Shown piece by piece: positions 1-45,112 of a stretch of DNA of 55,206 bases (positions are counted from its first letter, which is position 1; the number at the start of each line of letters is the position of its first letter). The stretch comes from a bacterium. Lineage in GTDB: Bacteria > Patescibacteriota > Minisyncoccia > Phycocordibacterales > GCA-002787175. The stretch lies in NCBI GenBank assembly GCA_030699905.1, contig JAUYKQ010000025.1, positions 1 through 55,206 of the forward strand, in the 5' to 3' direction. Under the pieces are notes generated by a model. That model ran no database searches, was not told the origin of the DNA, and saw nothing but the letters and a program-made list of their open reading frames with translations. A program made the position numbers and the translations under genes.

Positions 1-22
1 TTCACATTCCATGTGATACGTA
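1..22 (-). repeat. edge of a further rRNA hairpin insertion (E0), truncated by the window
   Basis: tcacattccatgtgat is identical to the right edge of E3 (1836-1851) and close to that of E7. Confidence 0.5.
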
Positions 23-140
23 CCGCCGTTATTTGACCTTCTGGCATTGGTCAAGTGTCACCCCCTATACATCCTCTTTCGAGTTCGCAGGGAGCTGTGT
101 TTTTGATAAACAGTCGCCAGGCATACTTTAGCTGCGGCCC

Positions 141-287
141 AGCGCGCAAAGCGCGCAAATCACAAGTTTGTAAAGTAAAAAGTTTATCAAGTTTATCAAG
201 TAAGAACGGAAAATTTTGTTTTTACTTTATAAACTTTACAACTTTATGAACTTTCAACTTGATGAACTGCGTGCTTTGCACGCCAGG
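141..287 (-). repeat. rRNA hairpin insertion E1 (variable helix-63-like position of domain IV)
   Basis: Clamp gcgcgcaaagcgcgc ... gcgtgctttgcacgc encloses AT-rich arms of aagtttat/aagtaa words. Conserved 23S sequence resumes on both sides. Confidence 0.75.
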
Positions 288-820
288 CAGGCCTTATCGC
301 TAACTTACGGCCGCTTTTTTGCCGAGTTCCTTGGAGACCTCTCACTCGTTCGCCTTACTCTACTCGAGCAGATCACCTGTGTCGGTTTGCGGTACGGTTT
401 TCATATAACTGAAGCTTAGAGGATTTTCTCGGAAGGCTCTTCGCGAAGATTTTCCCCCGAAGGAGAATTTCTCCCGAAAACGCGCATGGTATTAAAACCA
501 GCTCTTCGGATTTTCCTGAAAAGCTACGCTCATTTCAAGAGACGACTAATCCAATAAAGCGCCTCCGCTTGTTTCCTTCGTCCCCCCATCGCATTATATG
601 AAAGTCACGGAATATTAACCGTGTGTCCATCGGGTCCGGCATTCGCCATCCCCTTAGGCCCGACTAACCCTTGGCTGACAATCATCGCCAAGGAAACCTT
701 GATCTTTCGGCGTGCGGGTTTCTCACCCGCATTGTGGTTACTTGTGCCAACATTCTTGCTTCCAAACGCTCCACCATGGGTCACCCCTTTGGCTTCATCG
801 CAGATTGGAATATTCTCCTA

Positions 821-950
821 CCGCGCCTCGCGCAAAGCACGCGAACGCCGATTGTCGCCGATAAGACGCCGATGTTCGCGGATGAAATTCATCCGCGTTA
901 ATCCGCGTTTTATCCGCATATTATCCGCGTTCTTGTGCTTTGCACAAGGC
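821..950 (-). repeat. rRNA hairpin insertion E1b (helix-45-like position)
   Basis: Clamp cgcgcaaagcacgcg ... cttgtgctttgcacaag. Arms are built of cgccgat words on the left and atccgcg words on the right. Confidence 0.7.
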
Positions 951-1189
951 ACCCTCAGTTTCGGTACTACGCTTAGCCCCGATTATCTTCGGCGCAAATT
1001 CTCTTAGCGAGTGAGCTGTTACGCTTTCTTTGAATGATGGCTGCTTCTGAGCCTACATCCTCGCTGTCTTTGAAAATTCACCACCTTGAGATGCACTTAG
1101 CGTAGATTTAGGGACCTTAACTTGAGATCCGGGCTGTTTCCCTTTTGACGAACGGAGCTTAGCCCCCGCCGTCTAACTGCCACACTCTA

Positions 1190-1317
1190 CCGCGCAAAGC
1201 GCGGAAGTTACAAGTTCATCAAGTTTGTAAAGTCTGTAAAGTTTGACGGGGAAATTCCCCTTCCGACTTTATGAACTTTATAACTTTATAACTTTATAAA
1301 CTCCGTGCTTTGCACGG
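1190..1317 (-). repeat. rRNA hairpin insertion E2 (domain II)
   Basis: ccgcgcaaagcgcgg ... ccgtgctttgcacgg clamp. Arms are caagttcatcaagtttgtaaag / ctttatgaactttataactttat. Loop is gacggggaaattcccc. Confidence 0.75.
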
Positions 1318-1696
1318 TTCTTCTGGTATTCGGAGTTTGATAGGTCAAGCGAGCTTTCGCCCTGTCTTAACCTTCCAGTGCTCTACCCCCAAAAGGAACG
1401 TGTGACGCTAACCCAAAAGCTATTTCGGAGAAAACCAGCTATTACCAGATTCGATTAGCTTTTCACTCCTTACCACAGGTCATCCGATAGTATTGCACGG
1501 CTAACCGGTTCGGGCCTCCATCCGCCTTTCGGCGAACTTCACCCTGCCCATGGCAAGCTCATCTGGCTTCGGGTCTTTAGTATACGACAAACGCGCTATT
1601 CACACTCGGTTTCCCTACGGCTCCGTGCTTTAGAGGCACTTAGCCACGCCGCATACTAAAACTCGTTGGCTCATTCTTCAATAGGCACGCCGTGAC

Positions 1697-1860
1697 CGTC
1701 GCATCACGCGAAACGCGAAATCAGTTTATAAAGTAAAAAGTTATAAAGTTCATCAAGTAAGAAAAGCGAGCCTCTAAAATCCGGCATCGGTTTTACTTTA
1801 TGAACTTGCAACTTTATGAACTTGATAAACTTAAATCACATTCCATGTGATGCGGCGGCT
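1697..1860 (-). repeat. rRNA hairpin insertion E3 (helix-25-like position)
   Basis: ccgtcgcatcac ... gtgatgcggcgg stem base, internal mini-hairpins gcgaaacgc and cacattccatgtg, and AT-rich word arms. 142/155 nt identical to E7 by manual alignment. Confidence 0.8.
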
Positions 1861-2163
1861 CCGACTCCTTGTAAGCATATGGTTTCAGGTCTATTTCACT
1901 CCCCTCACCGGGGTTCTTTTCACCTTTCCCTCGCGGTACTAGTTCACTATCGGTCTAAAGAAGTATTTAGCCTTACCGGTTAGTTCCGGCAGATTCCCCC
2001 AAGCCATTCGTGTCTTGAGGTACTCAAGAACAAAAACAAAGAAGTTATTTTGCTTTCATGTACGGGGCTATTACCCTCTGGGGCAGTTCTTTCCAGAACT
2101 TTCCATTAACAAAATAATTTGTAACTTCCCTCGTATAAATACAACGTTTTTGTCTTACAACCC

Positions 2164-2308
2164 CTCGCGCGAAGCGCGCTGAACTCGACACGAATCTACG
2201 AATAGAAGATGCGAATGACACGAATAAAATCAAGTTTTGTTAATTTTATTCGTGTCATTCGTTCTTTACATTCGTGTCATCAGTGTCATGTACAGTGTGC
2301 TTCGCACA
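2164..2308 (-). repeat. rRNA hairpin insertion E4 (uses the cgaata/gcgaat word family)
   Basis: cgcgcgaagcgcgc ... gtgtgcttcgcacaa clamp. Arms are acacgaatctacgaatagaagatgcgaatgacacgaataaaat / attttattcgtgtcattcgttctttacattcgtgt. Confidence 0.75.
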
Positions 2309-2352
2309 AGGTTTGGGCTTCTGCGCTTTCGCTCGCCGCTACTGACGCAATG

Positions 2353-2510
2353 GGCGCGCTCCGCACGCAAGTTACAAGTTGAAAGTTTGAAAGTTGAAAG
2401 TCAAAAGTTGAAAGTCAAAGAAGGACGGAGTCCTTTCTTCACTTTACGAACTTTATGGACTTTTTACTTTATAAACTTTTTACTCTATAAACTGCATGCG
2501 AAGCACGCTT
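2353..2510 (-). repeat. rRNA hairpin insertion E5 (domain I)
   Basis: gcgctccgcacgc ... gcatgcgaagcacgc clamp. Arms are made of gaaagtt/caaaagtt words paired to actttat/aacttt words. Loop is ggacggagtcc. Confidence 0.75.
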
Positions 2511-2552
2511 GTTTTCTTTTCCTCCAGGTACTGAAATGTTTTACTTCCCTGG

Positions 2553-2690
2553 GTGCGCTCGCGCGAAGCGCGAGCAAGTCAAAAGTTCATAAAGTTATAA
2601 AGTTTATAAAGTAAAAACAAAATCTGTCGTTCTTACTTGATAAACTTGATAAACTTTTCACTTTATAACTCGTTCGCGCTTCGCGCGTCT
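2553..2690 (-). repeat. rRNA hairpin insertion E6 (helix-9/10-like position)
   Basis: gcgctcgcgcgaagcgcgagc ... gttcgcgcttcgcgcg clamp. Arms are aaagttcataaagttataaagtttataaagt / acttgataaacttgataaacttttcacttt. Confidence 0.75.
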
Positions 2691-2847
2691 CGTGCAAGCA
2701 CGAGGGGTTTCCCCATTCGGACATCTCCGGATCAAAGGTTGCTAGGCACCTCCCCGAAGCTTATCGCAGCCAAGCTACGTCCTTCATCGCCTTCTTTAGC
2801 CAAGGCATCCACCATATGCTCTTAATTTCCTATTAGGAAACTTGTAT

Positions 2848-38644: not shown

Positions 38645-40055
38645 TCACAAAATCGGTTCAGGAAGGTATTCGATTACTTCCTTCGGAAACTTTCTCGTGA
38701 CTTCGGAGATTTTTGCATAAACCCGCGTGACTTGGTCTTCGGCCAGTCCGTGATCGGGACGAAGAAGTTCTTCAATTTTCTCACGGTTTAGAGGGAAGTC
38801 GTCATCCTCGGAAAGTTTATGAACAAACCGATTGTCACCTCCACCCCTGACCTCTCTGACCGCCGAGAGGGCGTGTTTTTTGATCAGGCCATGAGCCCTC
38901 TCTCTGCCCATTCCCTTCTTCACCGCCTCCATAAGAAAGCGCGTGCTGGAAAGAAACGGAAGGTAATGCTCCAGCTCCTTTTCTATCACTCCCTGAAAGA
39001 TTTCCATCTCTTTCAAAACGGTAAGGGCAGATTCGCACATGCCGTCGTAAGCGAAAAAAACTCCCGGAAAAACGACACGGCGCACCACCGAACAGCTCAC
39101 GTCTCCCTCAAGCCATTGGTCCCCGACAAGCCGACTGACCATGTCTTGGAAACCACAAAGGACATTGAGAAGTCCGCAGATGCGTTCGGATGTGCGACTG
39201 TTGACCTTGAGCGGTTGAGGCCGTTTGGCCTTCCTTGAATCCTTCATGGAGAAGCTCGTGTCCGGCCATGAGACGGATCATTTTGGCAAAATTGCCGAGA
39301 GCGGACCCCATCTGTACCAAAACACTCACTACTTCAAAGTCAAGCGAGCGCGGATAGACCTGTCCCGTGCTGTCCAAAACCCGAGAGAATCCGAGATGCT
39401 CCATGATTTTTCTCTCAAACGCCTCCACTTTTTCAGCACTGCCCAAAAGATGGAGCATATCCTGTTGTGTTCCCATGGCGCCTTTTATCCCCCGTAGAGG
39501 ATAGTTGGCGACGAGATGTTCCAGCCGATCAAATCCGATGAGAAGCTCCTCCGCCAAAGTGGCAAAGCGTTTGCCGAGCGTGGTTGTCTGCCCGGGGACA
39601 TTGTGGGAGCGCCCACAGATATCCAAGGTTTTAAAATAGAGCGAGTTTAATCCGAAACCATAAAGTACCGCTACGGTACGCTCTCTCGCATGAAGCAGTG
39701 ACCGGCGAATCTGAAACTGTTCAATATTGTCAGTCAGTTCGCGAGACGTGAAGCCCTGATGAATGAGTTCGTAACCGGCCAAGGTGTTGAATTCATCAAT
39801 ACGGGCTTTGACATCTTGTCTTGTGGTAATCTCTCGATATCTAATAGAGCCGAGATGAACTAATTCCACCACCCTCTCATACGCCACGATGGCTTCTTCC
39901 GGAATCGCAAGGCCGAGGTCTTTCTGGGCTTTGAGAGTAGCGACCCAAAGTCGCCGTTCCAACTTGATTTTCTCCTCTTCTCCCCAGCGGTTTACCAGAG
40001 GCGTGCTCGCGTAGCGAGCCGCCAGCACATCTTTTAAAGGAACTTTTGCTTCCAT
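38645..40055 (-). pseudogene. purB: adenylosuccinate lyase, split into two overlapping ORFs by a frameshift at the signature loop
   Basis: ORF 39108-40055 carries the N-terminal and central fumarate-lyase-fold blocks up to ...MAGHELLHEGFKEGQ. ORF 38645-39247 resumes in another frame at KVNSRTSERICGL... and continues to the ADSL C-terminal domain. Confidence 0.6.
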
Positions 40056-40218: not shown

Positions 40219-43200
40219 CTATATGTCAAGCGAGAAAAAGAGATTTTCTATAGCAATGTTTTCCGTCGCCACGTCTTCAAAACTCATATCCTTAAGTCCC
40301 GCCGTTTTCTGAATTTCACTTTTATTTTTTTCAAGAAACGCTTTGCCTGTATCATCGGCCTTGACTTTTAGCACGACAGAATCGCTCGGGTTTAGCCCTT
40401 TCTTTTTGCGTAAATCCTGCACGGCGCGGATGAATTCCCGCACCGTTCCCTCCTCCTTAAGCTTTGGCGTTATTTCCGTATCAATCTCCACTTCTCCGGA
40501 AATCGTGTCGTCCAAAACAACCTCTTTTACATTCACCTCGTCTTTCACAAGGTTTATCATTTGCTCGTCTCCGACTTTAAACTTTAAACTTTTAACTTTT
40601 AACTTGTTTAGCGGCTGTCTCACTTTTATACTCGCTTTCGCTCTCTGCTCCAGTGCCAGCGAAACAATCCTTCTCACCTCTTCCATATCTTCAAGCATTT
40701 TTGTTCCATGTTCCATGTTCCATGTTCCATGTTTCGGCCATTCTTCCAGATGCACGCTTTTATCATGTAGCGTGTAGCATGTATCGTGTAGCGACTGATA
40801 CAAATGTTCGGCAAAAAACGGTGTAAACGGCGCCAAAAGTTTTGATAGTTCTATCAAGACATGTCGCAGAGTTGTCAGAGCTTCTTTGTCCCCCTCCTTT
40901 ATGCGGTCACGCGAACGCCGAAGATACCACTGCGACAGATCGCCGATAAATTCACGTATCGCTCTTGCCGGCTCAAGAAGCTTGTAATTATCAAGCCCTT
41001 CAGTTACTTCCCCAACCAGTTGACCCAACCTCGCGAGAACCCATTTGTCCAAAACATGCCCCTTCTCGGATGTTGCATGTTCCATGTTGTGTGTTCCATC
41101 TTTTGAATACAAAAGATAAAACTGCAGAACATTATCGGCGAGGTTAAACACCTTCTTCACTATCTCGTCCACCGTCTTTTCATCATAATTTTTCGCTTCC
41201 CCCGGCTGATTGACCGAGTACATCCAAAAACGCAAAGCGTCCGCTCCGTATTTTTCCATCTGCTCCTTTGGGTCAATAACGTTGCCGAGCGACTTGCTCA
41301 TCTTTTTACCCTTGGCTTCCAAAAGATGGCCGAGAGAAATGACGTTTTTGTAAGCCGCTCCTTTGCCCATCAAAACGCCGATTGCGTGCAAAGTGTAAAA
41401 CCATCCGCGCGTTTGGTCTATCGCCTCGCAAATATAATCGGCCGGATACCCCTTTTCATCTATGTAGTCCTTGTTTTTAAAAGGGTAATGGTCCTCCGCA
41501 AAAGGCATGGCACCCGAATCAAACCAAACGTCCATGACCTCTTTGACTCTTTTCATCTCGCCTCCGCATTTACAAATTAAAGAAATTTCGTCTACGCGAG
41601 GTTTGTGCGGGTCCAGTTCTTTACCGGTCGAGTTGTCAACATAGACGAAAGACGCCTCGGCGTATCCCCCCAAAAGCCCGCGTTTAAAAGTCCTTCTTTC
41701 TTGCCACAAATTCGTAACCTCCTGAAGCGACAAATTTTTCAAATAGCGCAAAAGAAAAATAAGAGGCCCTTCGTGGGACACTATGGCCACTGTTTCGCCT
41801 TTGTGCTTTTCCAAAATCTCGCGAACAAAATCAGACATTCTGTCTTCCACCTGCTTCCAGCTCTCCCCCGTCTGCCCTCTTGGAGTGAGGTAATACTTTT
41901 CATCAGGAAGACCGTTGTAGTCAAGACGATTTCTATTTATGAGAGAGTCCTGAGGTTCTTTGCCGTCCCATTGCCCGCTTTTTACCTCCCAAAGACGGTC
42001 GTCCAAAATGTTTTTGATTTTAATATTTTCCGCCACAATGTCTGCCGTTTCTCGAGCGCGTAAGACAGGAGATGAATACAAAGCATCAACGCCAAGCGCC
42101 GCCAGTTTCTTGCCCGCTTCTTTGGCTTGCTTTTTGCCCTCTTTTGTCAGAGGATATTTATCTCTTTCGCTGTCAAAAATACCGTCAATGTTTTTCTGGC
42201 TCTCTCCGTGGCGCAAAAGTATCAAACGAGTCAAAGGCCTGCCCGCTCCCAACTTAAATATTTCTTCAAATGACCCAACGACCCGCGTTTTTCCGCATCC
42301 CTTCTGCTTGCTATCGGTTTTTTGTAACTCTTCACCTTCAAAAATCTTAAATTCCGAACCTGAAATCTTGCCCGTTTGGATTTGCGGACAAATCCAAACG
42401 GGCAAAGGCGTTCCCCAATACCTCTCTCTTGAAATAGCCCAATCCTTTATATCCTTCAGCCACTCTCCAAACCTGCCCTCTTTTATATATTCCGGCTCCC
42501 AGTTTATTTTTTTATTTTCCTTTACGAGTTTGTCTTTTATTTTTTTGTCGGACATTTTTATATACCAAGAGTCCCGGGCGAAATATATAAGCGCGCTATG
42601 GCATCGCCAACAGTGAGGATAGCTATGCTCATATTTTTCTTTCGCGAAGAGAAGTCCGCGATGAGCCAAGTCCTTTATTATCTCCACGTCCGTACTTTCG
42701 GTCTTCACTTGTTTGCCCGAGAGAAACCCTGTTTCCTTCTTGAAAGTACCGTCTTCATTTACCAAATGATACTTGGGTAGCCCTTCTTTTGTTCCCAACT
42801 GAAAGTCGTCTTGTCCGTACATAACCGCCGTGTGCACGATTCCCGTGCCGTCTTCTGTCGTAACAAAATCCGCCGAATAAACCTTGAAAGCAGGATTTAG
42901 GGCTTCAGGATTTAGGGCTTTAGCAAGAAATGGATACAGAGGTTCGTATTCAAGTCCGACTAATTCCCCTCCCGTAAATTCCTCAATGATTTCGAACTCT
43001 TTATCTTTTAGAACATTCCCTATCCTCTCTTTTGCCAGTATGTATTCTTCCTTTATTCCTGATTCTTGATTCGTAATTCCGATCCGAACATATGTTATGT
43101 TCGGATTTACCGCAAGAGCCACATTCCCCGGCAATGTCCACGGCGTGGTCGTCCAAGCCAACATATAAGTTGGTTTGCCATTTTGAATTTTTAATTTTGA

Positions 43201-43863
43201 ATTTATTTCGGATTTCGGATTTCGGATTTGGAATTTCGCCGTTATCGACAAGTCCTTGACTGTCTCATATCCTTGAGCCAACTCGTGTGACGAAAGCGCC
43301 GTCCCGCATCTCGGGCACCACGGCACTACTTTGTAGTCCTTATACAAAAGCCCCTGCTCGTCTATTTTCTTTACTATGTTCCAAACCGATTCTATATAAT
43401 ACGGCTTGTAGGTAACATACGGGTGTTCCAAGTCAATCCAATAGCCCACCCTCTCCGTAAATTCTTCCCATTCGCGCACGTATTTCCAAACGCTCTCTTT
43501 GCATTTTTGATTGAACTTTTCAACGCCATACTCTTCAACTTCTTTTTTTGACTTAAGCCCGAGTTCTTTTTCCACCTGTATTTCAACAGGCAGTCCATGA
43601 GTATCCCAACCGCCTTTTCTCCGCACGTAAAAGCCACGCATTGTTTTGTATCGCGGTATGGCATCTTTAAACGCTCGGGACTCCAAGTGGTGAATTCCCG
43701 GCTTGCCATTGGCGGTAGGAGGCCCTTCGTAAAAAATGAATTCCTTGCCGGAGTCCTTGTTTTTTTCAAGAGTTTTTTCAAAAATACGGTTTTCCCTCCA
43801 CAACTCCAGTATTTCTTGCTCCTTTTTTGCCCTTTCCGAGCGGACATCTTTTTTGTCAGTCAT
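40219..43863 (-). CDS. ileS: isoleucyl-tRNA synthetase (type 2-like) with a nested histidine-phosphatase domain and several word-repeat insertions
   Basis: PPTANGKPGIHH (HIGH), TTPWTLPGN, ISRERYWGTPLPVW, VMDVWFDSG, GKKMSKSLGNVIDP (KMSKS). ATG at 43863 (MTDKKDVRSE...). Confidence 0.9.
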   Translation of the reverse strand: MTDKKDVRSERAKKEQEILELWRENRIFEKTLEKNKDSGKEFIFYEGPPTANGKPGIHHLESRAFKDAIPRYKTMRGFYVRRKGGWDTHGLPVEIQVEKELGLKSKKEVEEYGVEKFNQKCKESVWKYVREWEEFTERVGYWIDLEHPYVTYKPYYIESVWNIVKKIDEQGLLYKDYKVVPWCPRCGTALSSHELAQGYETVKDLSITAKFQIRNPKSEINSKLKIQNGKPTYMLAWTTTPWTLPGNVALAVNPNITYVRIGITNQESGIKEEYILAKERIGNVLKDKEFEIIEEFTGGELVGLEYEPLYPFLAKALNPEALNPAFKVYSADFVTTEDGTGIVHTAVMYGQDDFQLGTKEGLPKYHLVNEDGTFKKETGFLSGKQVKTESTDVEIIKDLAHRGLLFAKEKYEHSYPHCWRCHSALIYFARDSWYIKMSDKKIKDKLVKENKKINWEPEYIKEGRFGEWLKDIKDWAISRERYWGTPLPVWICPQIQTGKISGSEFKIFEGEELQKTDSKQKGCGKTRVVGSFEEIFKLGAGRPLTRLILLRHGESQKNIDGIFDSERDKYPLTKEGKKQAKEAGKKLAALGVDALYSSPVLRARETADIVAENIKIKNILDDRLWEVKSGQWDGKEPQDSLINRNRLDYNGLPDEKYYLTPRGQTGESWKQVEDRMSDFVREILEKHKGETVAIVSHEGPLIFLLRYLKNLSLQEVTNLWQERRTFKRGLLGGYAEASFVYVDNSTGKELDPHKPRVDEISLICKCGGEMKRVKEVMDVWFDSGAMPFAEDHYPFKNKDYIDEKGYPADYICEAIDQTRGWFYTLHAIGVLMGKGAAYKNVISLGHLLEAKGKKMSKSLGNVIDPKEQMEKYGADALRFWMYSVNQPGEAKNYDEKTVDEIVKKVFNLADNVLQFYLLYSKDGTHNMEHATSEKGHVLDKWVLARLGQLVGEVTEGLDNYKLLEPARAIREFIGDLSQWYLRRSRDRIKEGDKEALTTLRHVLIELSKLLAPFTPFFAEHLYQSLHDTCYTLHDKSVHLEEWPKHGTWNMEHGTKMLEDMEEVRRIVSLALEQRAKASIKVRQPLNKLKVKSLKFKVGDEQMINLVKDEVNVKEVVLDDTISGEVEIDTEITPKLKEEGTVREFIRAVQDLRKKKGLNPSDSVVLKVKADDTGKAFLEKNKSEIQKTAGLKDMSFEDVATENIAIENLFFSLDI
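40575..40606 (-). repeat. in-frame word patch in ileS (aactttaa words)
   Basis: ctttaaactttaaacttttaacttttaacttg encodes KLKVKSLKFKV. Confidence 0.55.
40703..40731 (-). repeat. in-frame gttccatg x4 array in ileS
   Basis: gttccatgttccatgttccatgttccatg encodes HGTWNMEHGT. Confidence 0.75.
40764..40793 (-). repeat. in-frame gtgtagcg-family word patch in ileS
   Basis: catgtagcgtgtagcatgtatcgtgtagcg encodes HDTCYTLHD. Same words as the intergenic hairpins at 26296 and 52104. Confidence 0.7.
41072..41100 (-). repeat. in-frame gttccatg-like patch in ileS
   Basis: gttgcatgttccatgttgtgtgttccatc encodes DGTHNMEHAT. Confidence 0.6.
41620..42235 (-). other. histidine phosphatase (PGAM / His_Phos_1-like) domain nested inside ileS
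   Basis: TRLILLRHGESQKN (RHG), YSSPVLRARETADIV, VAIVSHEGPLIFLL. Canonical IleRS sequence lies on both sides, with no stop codons. Confidence 0.75.
42367..42407 (-). repeat. 17-bp perfect hairpin inside ileS
   Basis: ttgcccgtttggatttg-cgga-caaatccaaacgggcaa. The mRNA-sense 5' arm encodes conserved LPVWIC; the 3' arm encodes the non-canonical QIQTGK. Confidence 0.85.
42891..42924 (-). repeat. in-frame tandem duplication/word patch in ileS
   Basis: caggatttagggcttcaggatttagggctttagc encodes KALNPEALNPA (tandem ALNPE/ALNPA). Confidence 0.65.
43181..43238 (-). repeat. in-frame word patch in ileS (cggattt / gaatttt words)
   Basis: ttttgaatttttaattttgaatttatttcggatttcggatttcggatttggaatttcg encodes NPKSEINSKLKIQNGK. 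Confidence 0.65.
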
Positions 43864-43969
43864 ATATAGACAGTTTAAGGTATTTTCGGCCTTTTTCCAA
43901 ACGTGTACACCGGCCATGAACAACAAACCGTATGCCAATGGAACCACAGTGTTCGTTTCAGCGCAAACT

Positions 43970-45058
43970 TTACTTCACCGCGTAATTTAGCGCGGCGAAT
44001 TCGTATTGTTCAATAAAAAGTTCTTTGAACGACACTAATGAATTGAGTTCGTAGAAAACAAGCATCGCTTCCCTGTATTCGTTCTCGTCCGCGCTTCTAT
44101 ATGAGAGTGGCGCACGACCGTGAGCGAGAAGAATGGCGTTTGCCATAAGCCGCGATGTTCTCTTGTTACCATCTTCAAATGGCTGAATATAACTTAAACC
44201 CAAAAGGGCAACCATGGCCTTTGCGCACGGTTCAGTCATTCTTAGAACGGCAAGCGAAAGCGCCTCCACCGCTTCCGCGATCTGATAACCGTTATCAAGC
44301 GGCCGATATTTTGACCCGAGCACTCCGACAGGTTTCAAGCGAAATCCGAAACCGACACCCAAATCTTTTACCAGTATCTCGTGAATCTTTTCCAAATTAG
44401 CGCGAGTAAGCGTCTGAAATTCTTTTGCGTTTTCGTGGACGAAATAAAAAGCGTCTTTATGATTTAGTATCATTCTTGCCTCTGCCCTGTCGTGTCCCGG
44501 TGCTTCCTTGTTTTCCAGAATCAGTTTTTCCGTATCAAGAAGCGTATAGGTATTGCCTTCTATTTTTGACGACTTCCACGACAGTTCAATAACAAGCCTT
44601 TCCAGTTCTTTTTTTCTTATCGCCTCGGGAAGGTCTGCCGTCCGCCCTTCGTACTCGGCCGTTGATTTATTAAAAGAGGCGAGTTCGTTATCCGAGAAAA
44701 TGTCATTTGGCATCTCCGAAAAAAGGTTGAAATTGTAGCCGGAAAGTCCGAAACGCTTGTCGGGGTCAGAGGCGCAATACGACCCTGCGTCCACTTCCGC
44801 AAAAAGCCTCCCCACAACGGATATTTCATACGCTGTCGACCTGCCTTTGCCGACAGGTCTTAAAAGCCCGGTTCCTGCCATTTCCGACAGTGTTCTTTTG
44901 ACAGTAACGAGTGAAGTGCTATCCCCCTGTTTGAGTAATTCATCACGCACAAAAGAGGACCGGACCGACCGGTTTTTCAAGAAAATGGACAGGATTTTTT
45001 GTTGTTTTTGGCTTATTTTTAGCACAATCGTATCATTTAGACCTTCTAATCGTATCAT
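43970..45058 (-). CDS. Fic/DOC-family protein with N-terminal wHTH and a degenerate active-site motif
   Basis: Fic core reads IQPFEDGNKRTSRLMA instead of HPFx(D/E)GNGRxxR. N-terminal inhibitory-helix-like SSKIEGN. Track start 45076 is TTG; ATG is at 45058. Confidence 0.75.
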   Translation of the reverse strand: MIRLEGLNDTIVLKISQKQQKILSIFLKNRSVRSSFVRDELLKQGDSTSLVTVKRTLSEMAGTGLLRPVGKGRSTAYEISVVGRLFAEVDAGSYCASDPDKRFGLSGYNFNLFSEMPNDIFSDNELASFNKSTAEYEGRTADLPEAIRKKELERLVIELSWKSSKIEGNTYTLLDTEKLILENKEAPGHDRAEARMILNHKDAFYFVHENAKEFQTLTRANLEKIHEILVKDLGVGFGFRLKPVGVLGSKYRPLDNGYQIAEAVEALSLAVLRMTEPCAKAMVALLGLSYIQPFEDGNKRTSRLMANAILLAHGRAPLSYRSADENEYREAMLVFYELNSLVSFKELFIEQYEFAALNYAVK

Positions 45059-45112
45059 TTTGATACGATTAAGCAAACTCCTTATTCACAGCAGTACGAC
45101 TGCTGTGAATCA

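Follow-up and report, generated by a model that had tools for sequence, protein, structure and literature searches.

The isoleucyl-tRNA synthetase (IleRS) gene of a member of the Patescibacteria encodes, within the catalytic domain of the synthetase, a second and complete enzyme domain, a branch-1 histidine phosphatase. The gene, ileS, is located in a stretch of 55,206 nucleotides (NCBI GenBank assembly GCA_030699905.1, contig JAUYKQ010000025.1, positions 1 to 55,206), the whole of which is referred to below as the window. A first-pass annotation, made from the sequence alone, had described a complete histidine phosphatase nested in frame between canonical IleRS blocks, and this description was borne out by a match to the Pfam family His_Phos_1 (PF00300) lying inside a split tRNA-synt_1 match, and by the predicted fold. 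The motifs that it quoted are located where it had placed them, and the open reading frame (ORF) of 1214 amino acids (aa) contains no stop. Taken as a whole, the locus is best explained by a complete type-2 IleRS (IleRS2) that carries a tethered phosphatase, autonomous and active, a reading to which we assign a probability of about 0.55.

The gene encodes the ordinary type-2 IleRS of this organism, complete with a GXHH signature, a KMSKS loop, intact editing motifs in connective peptide 1 (CP1) and a type-2 C-terminus, which lacks the zinc-binding domain that type-1 enzymes carry there (Table 1). Its initiator methionine is nearly invariant across the 120 best full-length homologues (1122-1257 aa, 52-64% identity), supporting the start codon at position 43863. 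The protein scores 868.4 bits against the TIGR00392 ileS equivalog model (cutoff 621.4), with the match split in two around the insert, and Pfam assigns to it tRNA-synt_1 (split), His_Phos_1, Anticodon_1 and DUF5915. In the class I signature, H59 is invariant and G56, I57 and H58 are nearly invariant among the 120 homologues; the whole clade of fused enzymes is, judged by this nearly invariant PGIHH (n=120), of the GXHH type. The DVWFDSG motif, which we take to lie on strand beta-4 in the second half of the Rossmann core, and the core motif DQTRGWF are retained. In the same homologues, little or no variation is seen in the CP1 motifs WTTTPWTLPGN (aa 237-247) and DGTGIVH (aa 338-344), and the CP1 region matches 1WK8 and 1UE0, structures of the isolated editing domain.

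The best sequence and structure matches of the protein are IleRS2 enzymes (1ILE, 8C8U-W), and type-1 enzymes score lower. The solved enzymes of Thermus thermophilus (1ILE) and Priestia megaterium (8C8U-8C8W; Brkic et al. 2023, PMC10485003) belong to the same family and have the same domain order; they share with the window protein the swapped G/AXHH motif (PMC10485003) and the knuckle cysteines, C461, C464, C502 and C504 in 1ILE, but have about 20 residues between the two zinc knuckles where the window protein has an entire second enzyme. In a subset of IleRS2 enzymes, G/AXHH has been linked to mupirocin hyper-resistance (PMC10485003). We constructed an AlphaFold model of residues 1-1200 on the alignment of 120 sequences; its mean pLDDT (per-residue confidence) was 88.9 and its pTM (global confidence) 0.85, with block means of 91-98 across the insert. 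The modelled IleRS scaffold superposes on 1ILE with a target-normalised TM-score (TMt) of 0.92, and on the P. megaterium enzyme 8C8W with a TMt of 0.79. The scaffold appears undisturbed, and the IleRS part would be expected to aminoacylate and edit normally.

When the window protein was aligned with hmmalign to a profile built from 35 IleRSs without the insert, a single insertion of about 205 residues emerged, between aa 541 and 746. The first cysteine pair and VVGSFEEI precede the insertion site, and DPHKPRVDE, the second cysteine pair and DVWFDSG follow it. The first-pass annotation had counted about 220 extra residues, which is right for the stretch between the two blocks that it quoted (aa 536-750) and too many for the insert proper (aa 542-745); its statement that only a short linker lies here in ordinary enzymes agrees with 1ILE, in which some 20 residues (WVCQACG 465 to EPFDPHRPYVD 486) occupy the place of about 225-250 in the window protein. 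Correspondingly, the span from WAISR to DVWFDSG is 66-105 aa in insert-free close relatives and 256-477 aa (median 266) in fused enzymes. The PF00300 match has an E-value of 2.5e-40 and scores 138.6 bits against a cutoff of 21.7, covering profile positions 1-169 of 194. The GC content across the insert is 0.45-0.48, as in the rest of ileS.

Two trivial origins were considered and rejected. An assembly chimera or a hidden frameshift is contradicted by the continuous ORF, by its uniform composition and by the presence of both junctions on hundreds of independent contigs; the first-pass annotation had named a missing His_Phos_1 match and a hidden stop or frameshift as what would count against it, and the E-value and these contigs show the opposite. 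An intein or other mobile in-frame element does not fit either, as PF00300 is the only Pfam family in the insert, with no Hint or homing-endonuclease domain, and as the phosphatase residues are conserved and the junctions shared across deep lineages.

To which subgroup the insert belongs was examined by sequence and by structure. The model of the domain alone (pLDDT 93.0, pTM 0.90) gave PhoE (1H2E, 1EBB) as its best Foldseek matches, with a probability of 1.00 and TMt of 0.82-0.84, whereas cofactor-dependent phosphoglycerate mutases (dPGMs) reached about 0.6; the nearest folds were PhoE, PspA, CobC, Rv2419c and HFP. Sequence alignment gave the same picture: PhoE/YhfR, PspA (4IJ5) and CobC match the domain end to end, whereas the dPGM chains 1E58, 3PGM and 1QHF match only the N-terminal RHG region (query residues about 9-103). 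The domain shares with PhoE/YhfR of Geobacillus stearothermophilus a branch-1 fold of about 200 residues at 30% identity from end to end, and with PhoE, PspA and CobC the RHG...R...E...H set and an acid/base segment of the form L.E...G.WEG. PspA, a phosphoserine phosphatase, and CobC (6E4B, 6NRU), an alpha-ribazole phosphatase, are related short phosphatases. These are free-standing enzymes, whereas the window domain is present as a single copy in a synthetase of 1214 aa, with both of its termini tied to the zinc-knuckle hairpin. Small enzymes of the PhoE/PspA/CobC type have been described as oligomers.

None of the curated family models claims the insert. Its best NCBIfam match is a short archaeal dPGM model (NF038349, 115.6 bits, cutoff 225), followed by NF005567 (97 bits, cutoff 326). 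The thresholds of TIGR01258 (pgm_1; 46.2 against 81.7), cobC (TIGR03162; 95.5 against 162.9), PspA (NF045917; 89.3 against 350), SixA (TIGR00249; 40 against 74.5) and GpmB were likewise missed, and all PRK gpmA models scored far under their cutoffs. As no curated threshold for dPGM, CobC, PspA, SixA or GpmB is reached, the substrate cannot be named from the sequence. Both the alignments and the predicted fold nevertheless place the insert as a phosphatase of the short PhoE/PspA/CobC subgroup and not as a mutase. The label 'PGAM-like' given in the first-pass annotation is accordingly imprecise.

The catalytic residues of the insert are intact. We counted them in two samples, the 120 close full-length homologues and 112 diverse cluster representatives with a single phosphatase domain, and all six predicted active-site residues are present in every one of the former (Table 1). 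This conservation contrasts with the rest of the domain: among the 120 homologues the insert has a mean pairwise identity of 37% and the IleRS core one of 70%, and median insert identity is only about 30% among the 112 representatives. With catalytic residues fixed while the rest of the domain drifts fast, the active site is under strong selection, and a fixed catalytic centre in a drifting shell is the pattern expected of an enzyme with a small substrate. The full catalytic signature that had been noted, and the competent rather than decayed look that was read from it, are upheld by this conservation. The insert has a median isoelectric point of 6.3, like its free-standing homologues, and is not basic. 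Divergence of the insert is correlated with that of the core (Pearson 0.34, with 0 of 999 permutations as high), but the correlation is weak because insert distances are saturated.

Table 1. Features of ileS, its phosphatase insert and other genes of the window. Positions are those of the window. Residue counts are given for 120 close full-length homologues (x/120) and for 112 diverse single-domain cluster representatives (x/112).
Feature	Positions	Strand	Basis or remarks
Uninterrupted ORF	40219..43947	-	ORF scan, no internal stop
ileS coding sequence, 1214-aa type-2 IleRS with nested phosphatase	40219..43863	-	ATG at 43863, stop codon 40219-40221
Class I signature, swapped GXHH form (G56-I57-H58-H59)	43687..43698	-	Reads PGIHHLESR
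Motif ISRERYWGTPLPVW, IleRS block before insert	42394-42435	-	Motif search
First zinc knuckle, C492...C523	42295..42390	-	Aligns with C461/C464 of 1ILE
Hydrophilic expansion of about 28-30 aa, PQIQTGKISGSEFKIFEGEELQKTDSKQKG, inside first knuckle	42298-42384	-	Residues 497-517 with pLDDT <50
VVGSFEEI, IleRS block before insert	42259-42282	-	Motif search
Whole insert, aa 542-745, phosphatase and return segment	41629..42240	-	hmmalign against insert-free profile
Histidine phosphatase branch 1 core, aa 547-719	41707..42225	-	PF00300
LILLRHGES	42199-42225	-	Motif search
Arg551-His552 (RHG motif), His552 the predicted phospho-accepting nucleophile	42208..42213	-	120/120; each 112/112
Asn558, predicted phosphate-pocket residue	42190..42192	-	120/120; 95/112
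SSPVLRARET	42046-42075	-	Motif search
Arg602, predicted second phosphate-binding Arg (SPVLRARET)	42058..42060	-	120/120; 111/112
Glu626, predicted general acid/base (RLWEV)	41986..41988	-	120/120; 109/112, Asp in the other 3
VSHEGP	41764-41781	-	Motif search
His697, predicted second catalytic His (VSHEGP)	41773..41775	-	120/120; 112/112
IleRS resuming, then second zinc knuckle, C764-K-C766-GG	41560..41613 (resuming block 41584-41613)	-	Aligns with 1ILE DPHRPYVDQVELACACGG, C502/C504
DVWFDSG motif	41512..41532 (VWFDSG 41512-41529)	-	D778, V779, W780, D782, S783 and G784 invariant
KMSKS loop, aa 854-858	41290..41304	-	K854, M855 and K857 invariant (120 homologues)
Anticodon-binding domain (aa 939-1086) and DUF5915 (aa 1088-1205)	40249..41049	-	PF08264, E = 7.7e-31; PF19302, E = 2.7e-14
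Fic/DOC-domain protein, 368 aa, directly upstream of ileS	43970-45076	-	Weak sub-threshold FUR-family match N-terminally
ArgRS, 573 aa	45113-46834	-	No extra domain
purB (adenylosuccinate lyase), downstream of ileS	38645-40055	-	Overlapping ORFs 39108-40055 and 38645-39247, different frames
Class II GlyRS-like enzyme, 443 aa	34271-35602	-	No extra domain
MetRS, 482 aa	29482-30930	-	No extra domain
Partial 23S rRNA	1-2835	-	Model positions 1-1902 spread over 2835 nucleotides

We then examined how widely the insert is distributed. The first-pass annotation knew of no comparable IleRS and implied that the architecture is rare; instead it is common, as all of the 120 best full-length homologues contain PF00300. 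These carry labels of Taylorbacteria, Nomurabacteria, Paceibacterota, Minisyncoccia and Parcubacteria GW2011 genomes, and their database names are only 'isoleucine--tRNA ligase' or 'class I tRNA ligase family protein'. When 1.84 billion cluster representatives (50% identity) were searched exhaustively with a profile and the best 148 retrieved, 133 of those 148 carried the insert, from Parcubacteria/Paceibacteria, Peregrinibacteria and other Patescibacteria. At least 32 fused loci were present in a sample of 80 loci listed from GTDB species genomes, labelled as Paceibacteria, Nomurabacteria, Yanofskybacteria, Minisyncoccia, Spechtbacterales and Peregrinibacteria/Peribacteria, and the IleRSs of other phyla and of archaea among the loci listed were without it. 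Labels of Saccharibacteria, Gammaproteobacteria and Spirochaetia also occur, assigned automatically to third-party (TPA) entries, and are probably unreliable. The insert is a lineage-wide and old trait, the normal state of IleRS in a large part of the Patescibacteria. A rough neighbor-joining tree of the core fits either one gain with about 13 losses or several gains.

A query spanning the junction identified a dozen fragmentary IleRSs with PF00133 and PF00300, all with the insert at the identical place. This junction-only search yielded nothing longer than 540 aa because ileS is broken in some metagenome-assembled genomes (MAGs). In two proteins (P0003, P0017) and at one locus (L032), the fused gene is split into partial ORFs with frameshift-like ends flanking the phosphatase; these breaks probably stem from errors of assembly or sequencing, or mark pseudogenes.

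To search for further arrangements, every insertion of at least 60 aa was mapped onto a common IleRS profile for 323 sequences. Site 1, that of the window protein between the zinc knuckles, is occupied in 265 of the 323, by a single His_Phos domain in 259 and by tandem His_Phos pairs (the Peregrinibacteria type, seen in Peregrinibacteria/Peribacteria) in six. Five sequences have an insertion at site 2, between DVWFDSG and DQTRGWF (four His_Phos and one P-loop kinase-like), and four have a His_Phos domain at site 3, which follows KMSKS where the anticodon-binding domain begins. According to Pfam, one enzyme (P0347) carries His_Phos at site 2 only and another (P0265) at site 3 only; some IleRSs have two copies, and one enzyme may have three. 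Such variants are represented by P0347, P0265, P0359, P0341, P0272 and P0321 and by loci L018, L022, L024 and L025. Every complete copy in the two-domain enzymes examined has the full catalytic set; in the first domain of P0319, whose N-terminus is truncated, only Arg, Glu and the second His could be assessed. The domains at sites 2 and 3 are nearer to site-1 domains of other IleRSs (35-45% identity) than to free-standing phosphatases, and the window insert scores at least 100 bits against many embedded domains and at most 82 bits against the best free-standing one. Because the embedded domains are closer to each other than to free-standing ones, this comparison suggests a single IleRS-associated His_Phos lineage that may have been duplicated and re-sited inside the gene.

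Two classes of insert share site 1. That of the window (n=20) is characterized by LILLRHGES...YVDNSTGKE and the major class (n=146) by YFVMRHGEAENN...PHNxxYELD. The window's class sits in a small IleRS sub-clade nested among enzymes of the major class. Between the classes, identity of the insert drops from 46-63% to 25-39%, whereas that of the core falls smoothly, a jump that may reflect either faster divergence or the exchange of one domain for another without a change of site.

Three single examples of other insertions were also identified: a NUDIX domain in CP1 (P0352, aa 226-343), a P-loop kinase-like domain (AAA_18/AAA_33/Zeta-toxin-like) at site 2 (P0350, aa 746-869), and an in-frame IS200/Y1-transposase-like fragment in CP1 (P0309, aa 250-440), presumably a mobile-element insertion. 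A search with the concatenated inserts of P0352 and P0350 brought up a single small Nudix protein, unrelated to them, and missed even the source proteins, and both the reality and the frequency of the NUDIX- and kinase-bearing variants are uncertain.

The zinc-knuckle hairpin into which the phosphatase is inserted also varies. Most homologues have CxxC at the first knuckle (145 sequences), and an expansion of 22-32 aa similar to that of the window protein occurs only in P0103, P0224 and the non-fused P0320; this expansion is separate from the phosphatase insert and is predicted to be disordered. Counted one by one, the four cysteines (C492, C523, C764 and C766) are each replaced in 12 of the 120 fused homologues, and several class-B fragments, e.g., P0005 and P0009, lack the knuckles. 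Zinc binding at the insertion hairpin appears to be dispensable.

What the phosphatase might do for its host was considered with these observations in mind. As its leading role we tentatively favour, at somewhat short of even odds, an autonomous phosphomonoesterase for small molecules that the lineage would need and that is permanently tethered to IleRS, the two parts probably folding and acting independently. His552 would attack a phosphomonoester to form a phospho-histidine, by the standard two-step mechanism of the superfamily, with Glu626 as the presumed acid/base and with Arg551, Asn558, Arg602 and His697 predicted to hold the phosphate. Tethering to an essential gene would provide co-expression, stoichiometry and retention, while the phosphatase itself would stand outside the chemistry of aminoacylation. 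Because His_Phos sits in three different loops, its position relative to the IleRS active site would not have to be fixed. Autonomy and a small substrate are both favoured by the fast-evolving surface around a fixed active site and by the near-neutral character of the domain, and the reading as a whole also by the housekeeping neighbourhood, devoid of a kinase or partner gene, and by the lack of a second His_Phos gene nearby. Other considerations weigh against this proposal: substrate specificity in the histidine phosphatase superfamily cannot be read from sequence, and the recurrence of the domain in three loops, its presence in two or three copies and its restriction to IleRS within the window are explained less easily by a hitch-hiker than by a functional link.

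Such a link is the essence of the foremost alternative, in which the phosphatase acts on something that IleRS makes or binds and proximity has been selected; candidates include AMP, Ap4A-type compounds after cleavage, 2'/3'-phospho-nucleotides, and a phosphorylated 3' end of tRNA-Ile. We consider this possible, if distinctly less probable. The occurrence of domains with intact catalytic residues at three IleRS loops and in tandem pairs argues for it, as do the mutual scores of the embedded domains (at least 100 bits, against at most 82 to free-standing ones), which suggest a lineage dedicated to IleRS; yet three attachment points are at odds with a fixed channel to a single active site, and a non-basic domain with a poorly conserved surface is unlike a tRNA-docking module. 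Moreover, we know of no histidine phosphatase that acts on RNA ends. The NUDIX (P0352) and P-loop kinase-like (P0350) inserts are enzyme types directed at nucleotides or RNA ends, which favours this alternative, but both are singletons. The mycobacterial protein MutT1, a Nudix enzyme with an RHG domain, offers a precedent, although the activity of that RHG domain is itself called unknown (PMC11784022). In the strictest form of the proposal, IleRS would have gained a second catalytic activity coupled to aminoacylation, whether on a nucleotide by-product, on a damaged tRNA-Ile end or in gating by phospho-transfer, and this we regard as possible though less likely than not.

More specific roles fare less well than a tethered phosphatase of either kind. 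That the domain serves as a phosphoprotein or regulatory phosphatase, acting on phospho-His, phospho-Ser or phospho-Thr of IleRS or another protein, or modulating IleRS by sensing a phospho-metabolite, is unlikely. Aminoacyl-tRNA synthetases (aaRSs) are known targets of toxin kinases, e.g., HipA on GltX. Some members of the superfamily act on phosphoproteins: SixA is reported to remove phosphate from phospho-His on Ndk (PMC12934123), and MutT1 is reported to be linked to the dephosphorylation of sensor kinases (PMC12407098). However, the insert scores only 40 bits against the SixA model (threshold 74.5), its nearest relatives are phosphatases of small molecules, and no kinase or toxin gene is conserved beside ileS. 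Quite unlikely, in our estimation, is a cryptic glycolytic role, in which the insert would be the dPGM that metabolic surveys miss in some Parcubacteria. A gap at this step is reported for Parcubacteria by Jaffe et al. (PMC7304191), the top NCBIfam match of the insert is a dPGM model (NF038349, 115.6 bits), and no other His_Phos gene is present in the window. Against this, the cutoffs of NF038349 (225) and pgm_1 (46 bits against 81.7) are missed, and 1E58, 3PGM and 1QHF align only N-terminally, with TMt of about 0.6 against 0.82-0.84 for PhoE. The acid/base segment RLWEVKSGQWDGK aligns with RLREIHLGDWEGK of PhoE and differs from the NERHYG form found in dPGMs, and the insert has no free C-terminal tail. 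Finally, an artefact or dead passenger, i.e., a chimera, a hidden frameshift or a decaying remnant, is extremely improbable: frameshifted or partial copies (P0003, P0017, L032) and the IS200-like fragment in P0309 do occur, but the window ORF is uninterrupted and uniform, hundreds of independent assemblies share its junctions, the catalytic residues are invariant at about 30-37% identity, and the fold is predicted with high confidence.

Enzymes nested in or fused to other enzymes are known, and the present arrangement differs from each of the examples that we compared. One precedent is CP1 of the class Ia synthetases, a hydrolytic domain set within the Rossmann-fold catalytic domain of its own enzyme; all IleRSs, ValRSs and LeuRSs possess CP1, which acts on products that the enzyme itself has mis-made, whereas the His_Phos insert is restricted to one lineage, occupies another site and belongs to an unrelated superfamily. 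Branch-1 domains are fused to nucleotide or nucleic-acid enzymes in mycobacterial MutT1 (PMC11784022) and in the RNase H/acid phosphatase of the Rv2228c type (NF005567), but these are end-to-end rather than nested fusions, and the NF005567 cutoff is not reached (97 against 326). A role of the MutT1 RHG domain in converting 8-oxo-GDP to GMP was not borne out, as PMC11784022 calls the activity unknown. An IleRS with an extra enzymatic domain is also described by NF040702 ('isoleucine--tRNA ligase, N-acetyltransferase domain-containing'); that domain is of the GNAT family, and the window protein, at 334 bits against a cutoff of 1999, is not a member.

The first-pass annotation had allowed that the insert might prove to be a common and already described feature of IleRS. 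Common it is; however, a search of full-text literature, outside of which most subscription journals lie, found no description of an IleRS or any other aaRS with a histidine phosphatase domain. Neither PMC10485003 nor a 2026 preprint on the evolution of IleRS domains mentions a phosphatase or Patescibacteria. A paper on yeast IleRS with tRNA likewise describes no such domain, and its text states no residue limits for CP2 and CP3. The architecture is abundant in public sequence data, where it goes back at least to the GW2011-named genomes, and yet it has gone unremarked. The discovery is therefore that of an unremarked lineage-wide feature, not of a unique locus.

The aaRSs are among the most conserved of enzymes, and extra catalytic domains in them, such as editing domains, are mechanistically important. 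Here, an apparently active phosphatase, found throughout a superphylum, resides inside the catalytic domain of an essential synthetase. If its activity is linked to IleRS, it would represent a new auxiliary reaction in tRNA charging or in the nucleotide housekeeping of organisms with minimal genomes; if it acts on what IleRS makes or binds, it would define a new class of accessory catalytic aaRS domain, specific to a superphylum with minimal metabolism. If it is instead an unrelated housekeeping phosphatase, an essential enzyme has become the permanent carrier of another, and metabolic reconstructions for the candidate phyla radiation (CPR) based on hidden Markov models can miss or mis-assign enzymes hidden in other genes.

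We also examined the genomic context of ileS. In the window the gene order is serine hydroxymethyltransferase, thymidylate kinase, ArgRS, a Fic protein, IleRS, purB, RecO, a DUF11 protein and a class II aaRS, and the order ArgRS-IleRS-RecO-DUF11-GlyRS is found in about 15 of 33 related loci. No kinase, toxin or other partner gene is conserved beside ileS in the related loci, which show only housekeeping synteny. None of the fused loci showed a second His_Phos gene up to 10 kb from ileS, nor did the rest of the 55-kb window, and neither fused nor non-fused CPR loci have a free-standing one beside ileS. The Fic gene is not conserved beside ileS in 32 related loci, and purB is likewise outside the neighbourhood conserved among relatives. 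The two overlapping ORFs of purB, the second of which (38645-39247) contains ADSL_C, lie in a region with a GC content of 0.50-0.53 (surroundings about 0.45), and the split indicates a frameshift, so that the gene is either a pseudogene or affected by a sequencing error. Among the four aaRS genes of the window, the His_Phos insert is limited to IleRS, and the other three enzymes are of ordinary size.

At the start of the window, the spread of the 23S rRNA model positions implies about 900 nucleotides of extra sequence, insertions or introns, in the gene. No ORF of at least 150 aa is present within positions 1-2835. Extra sequence in rRNA genes has been reported for CPR bacteria.

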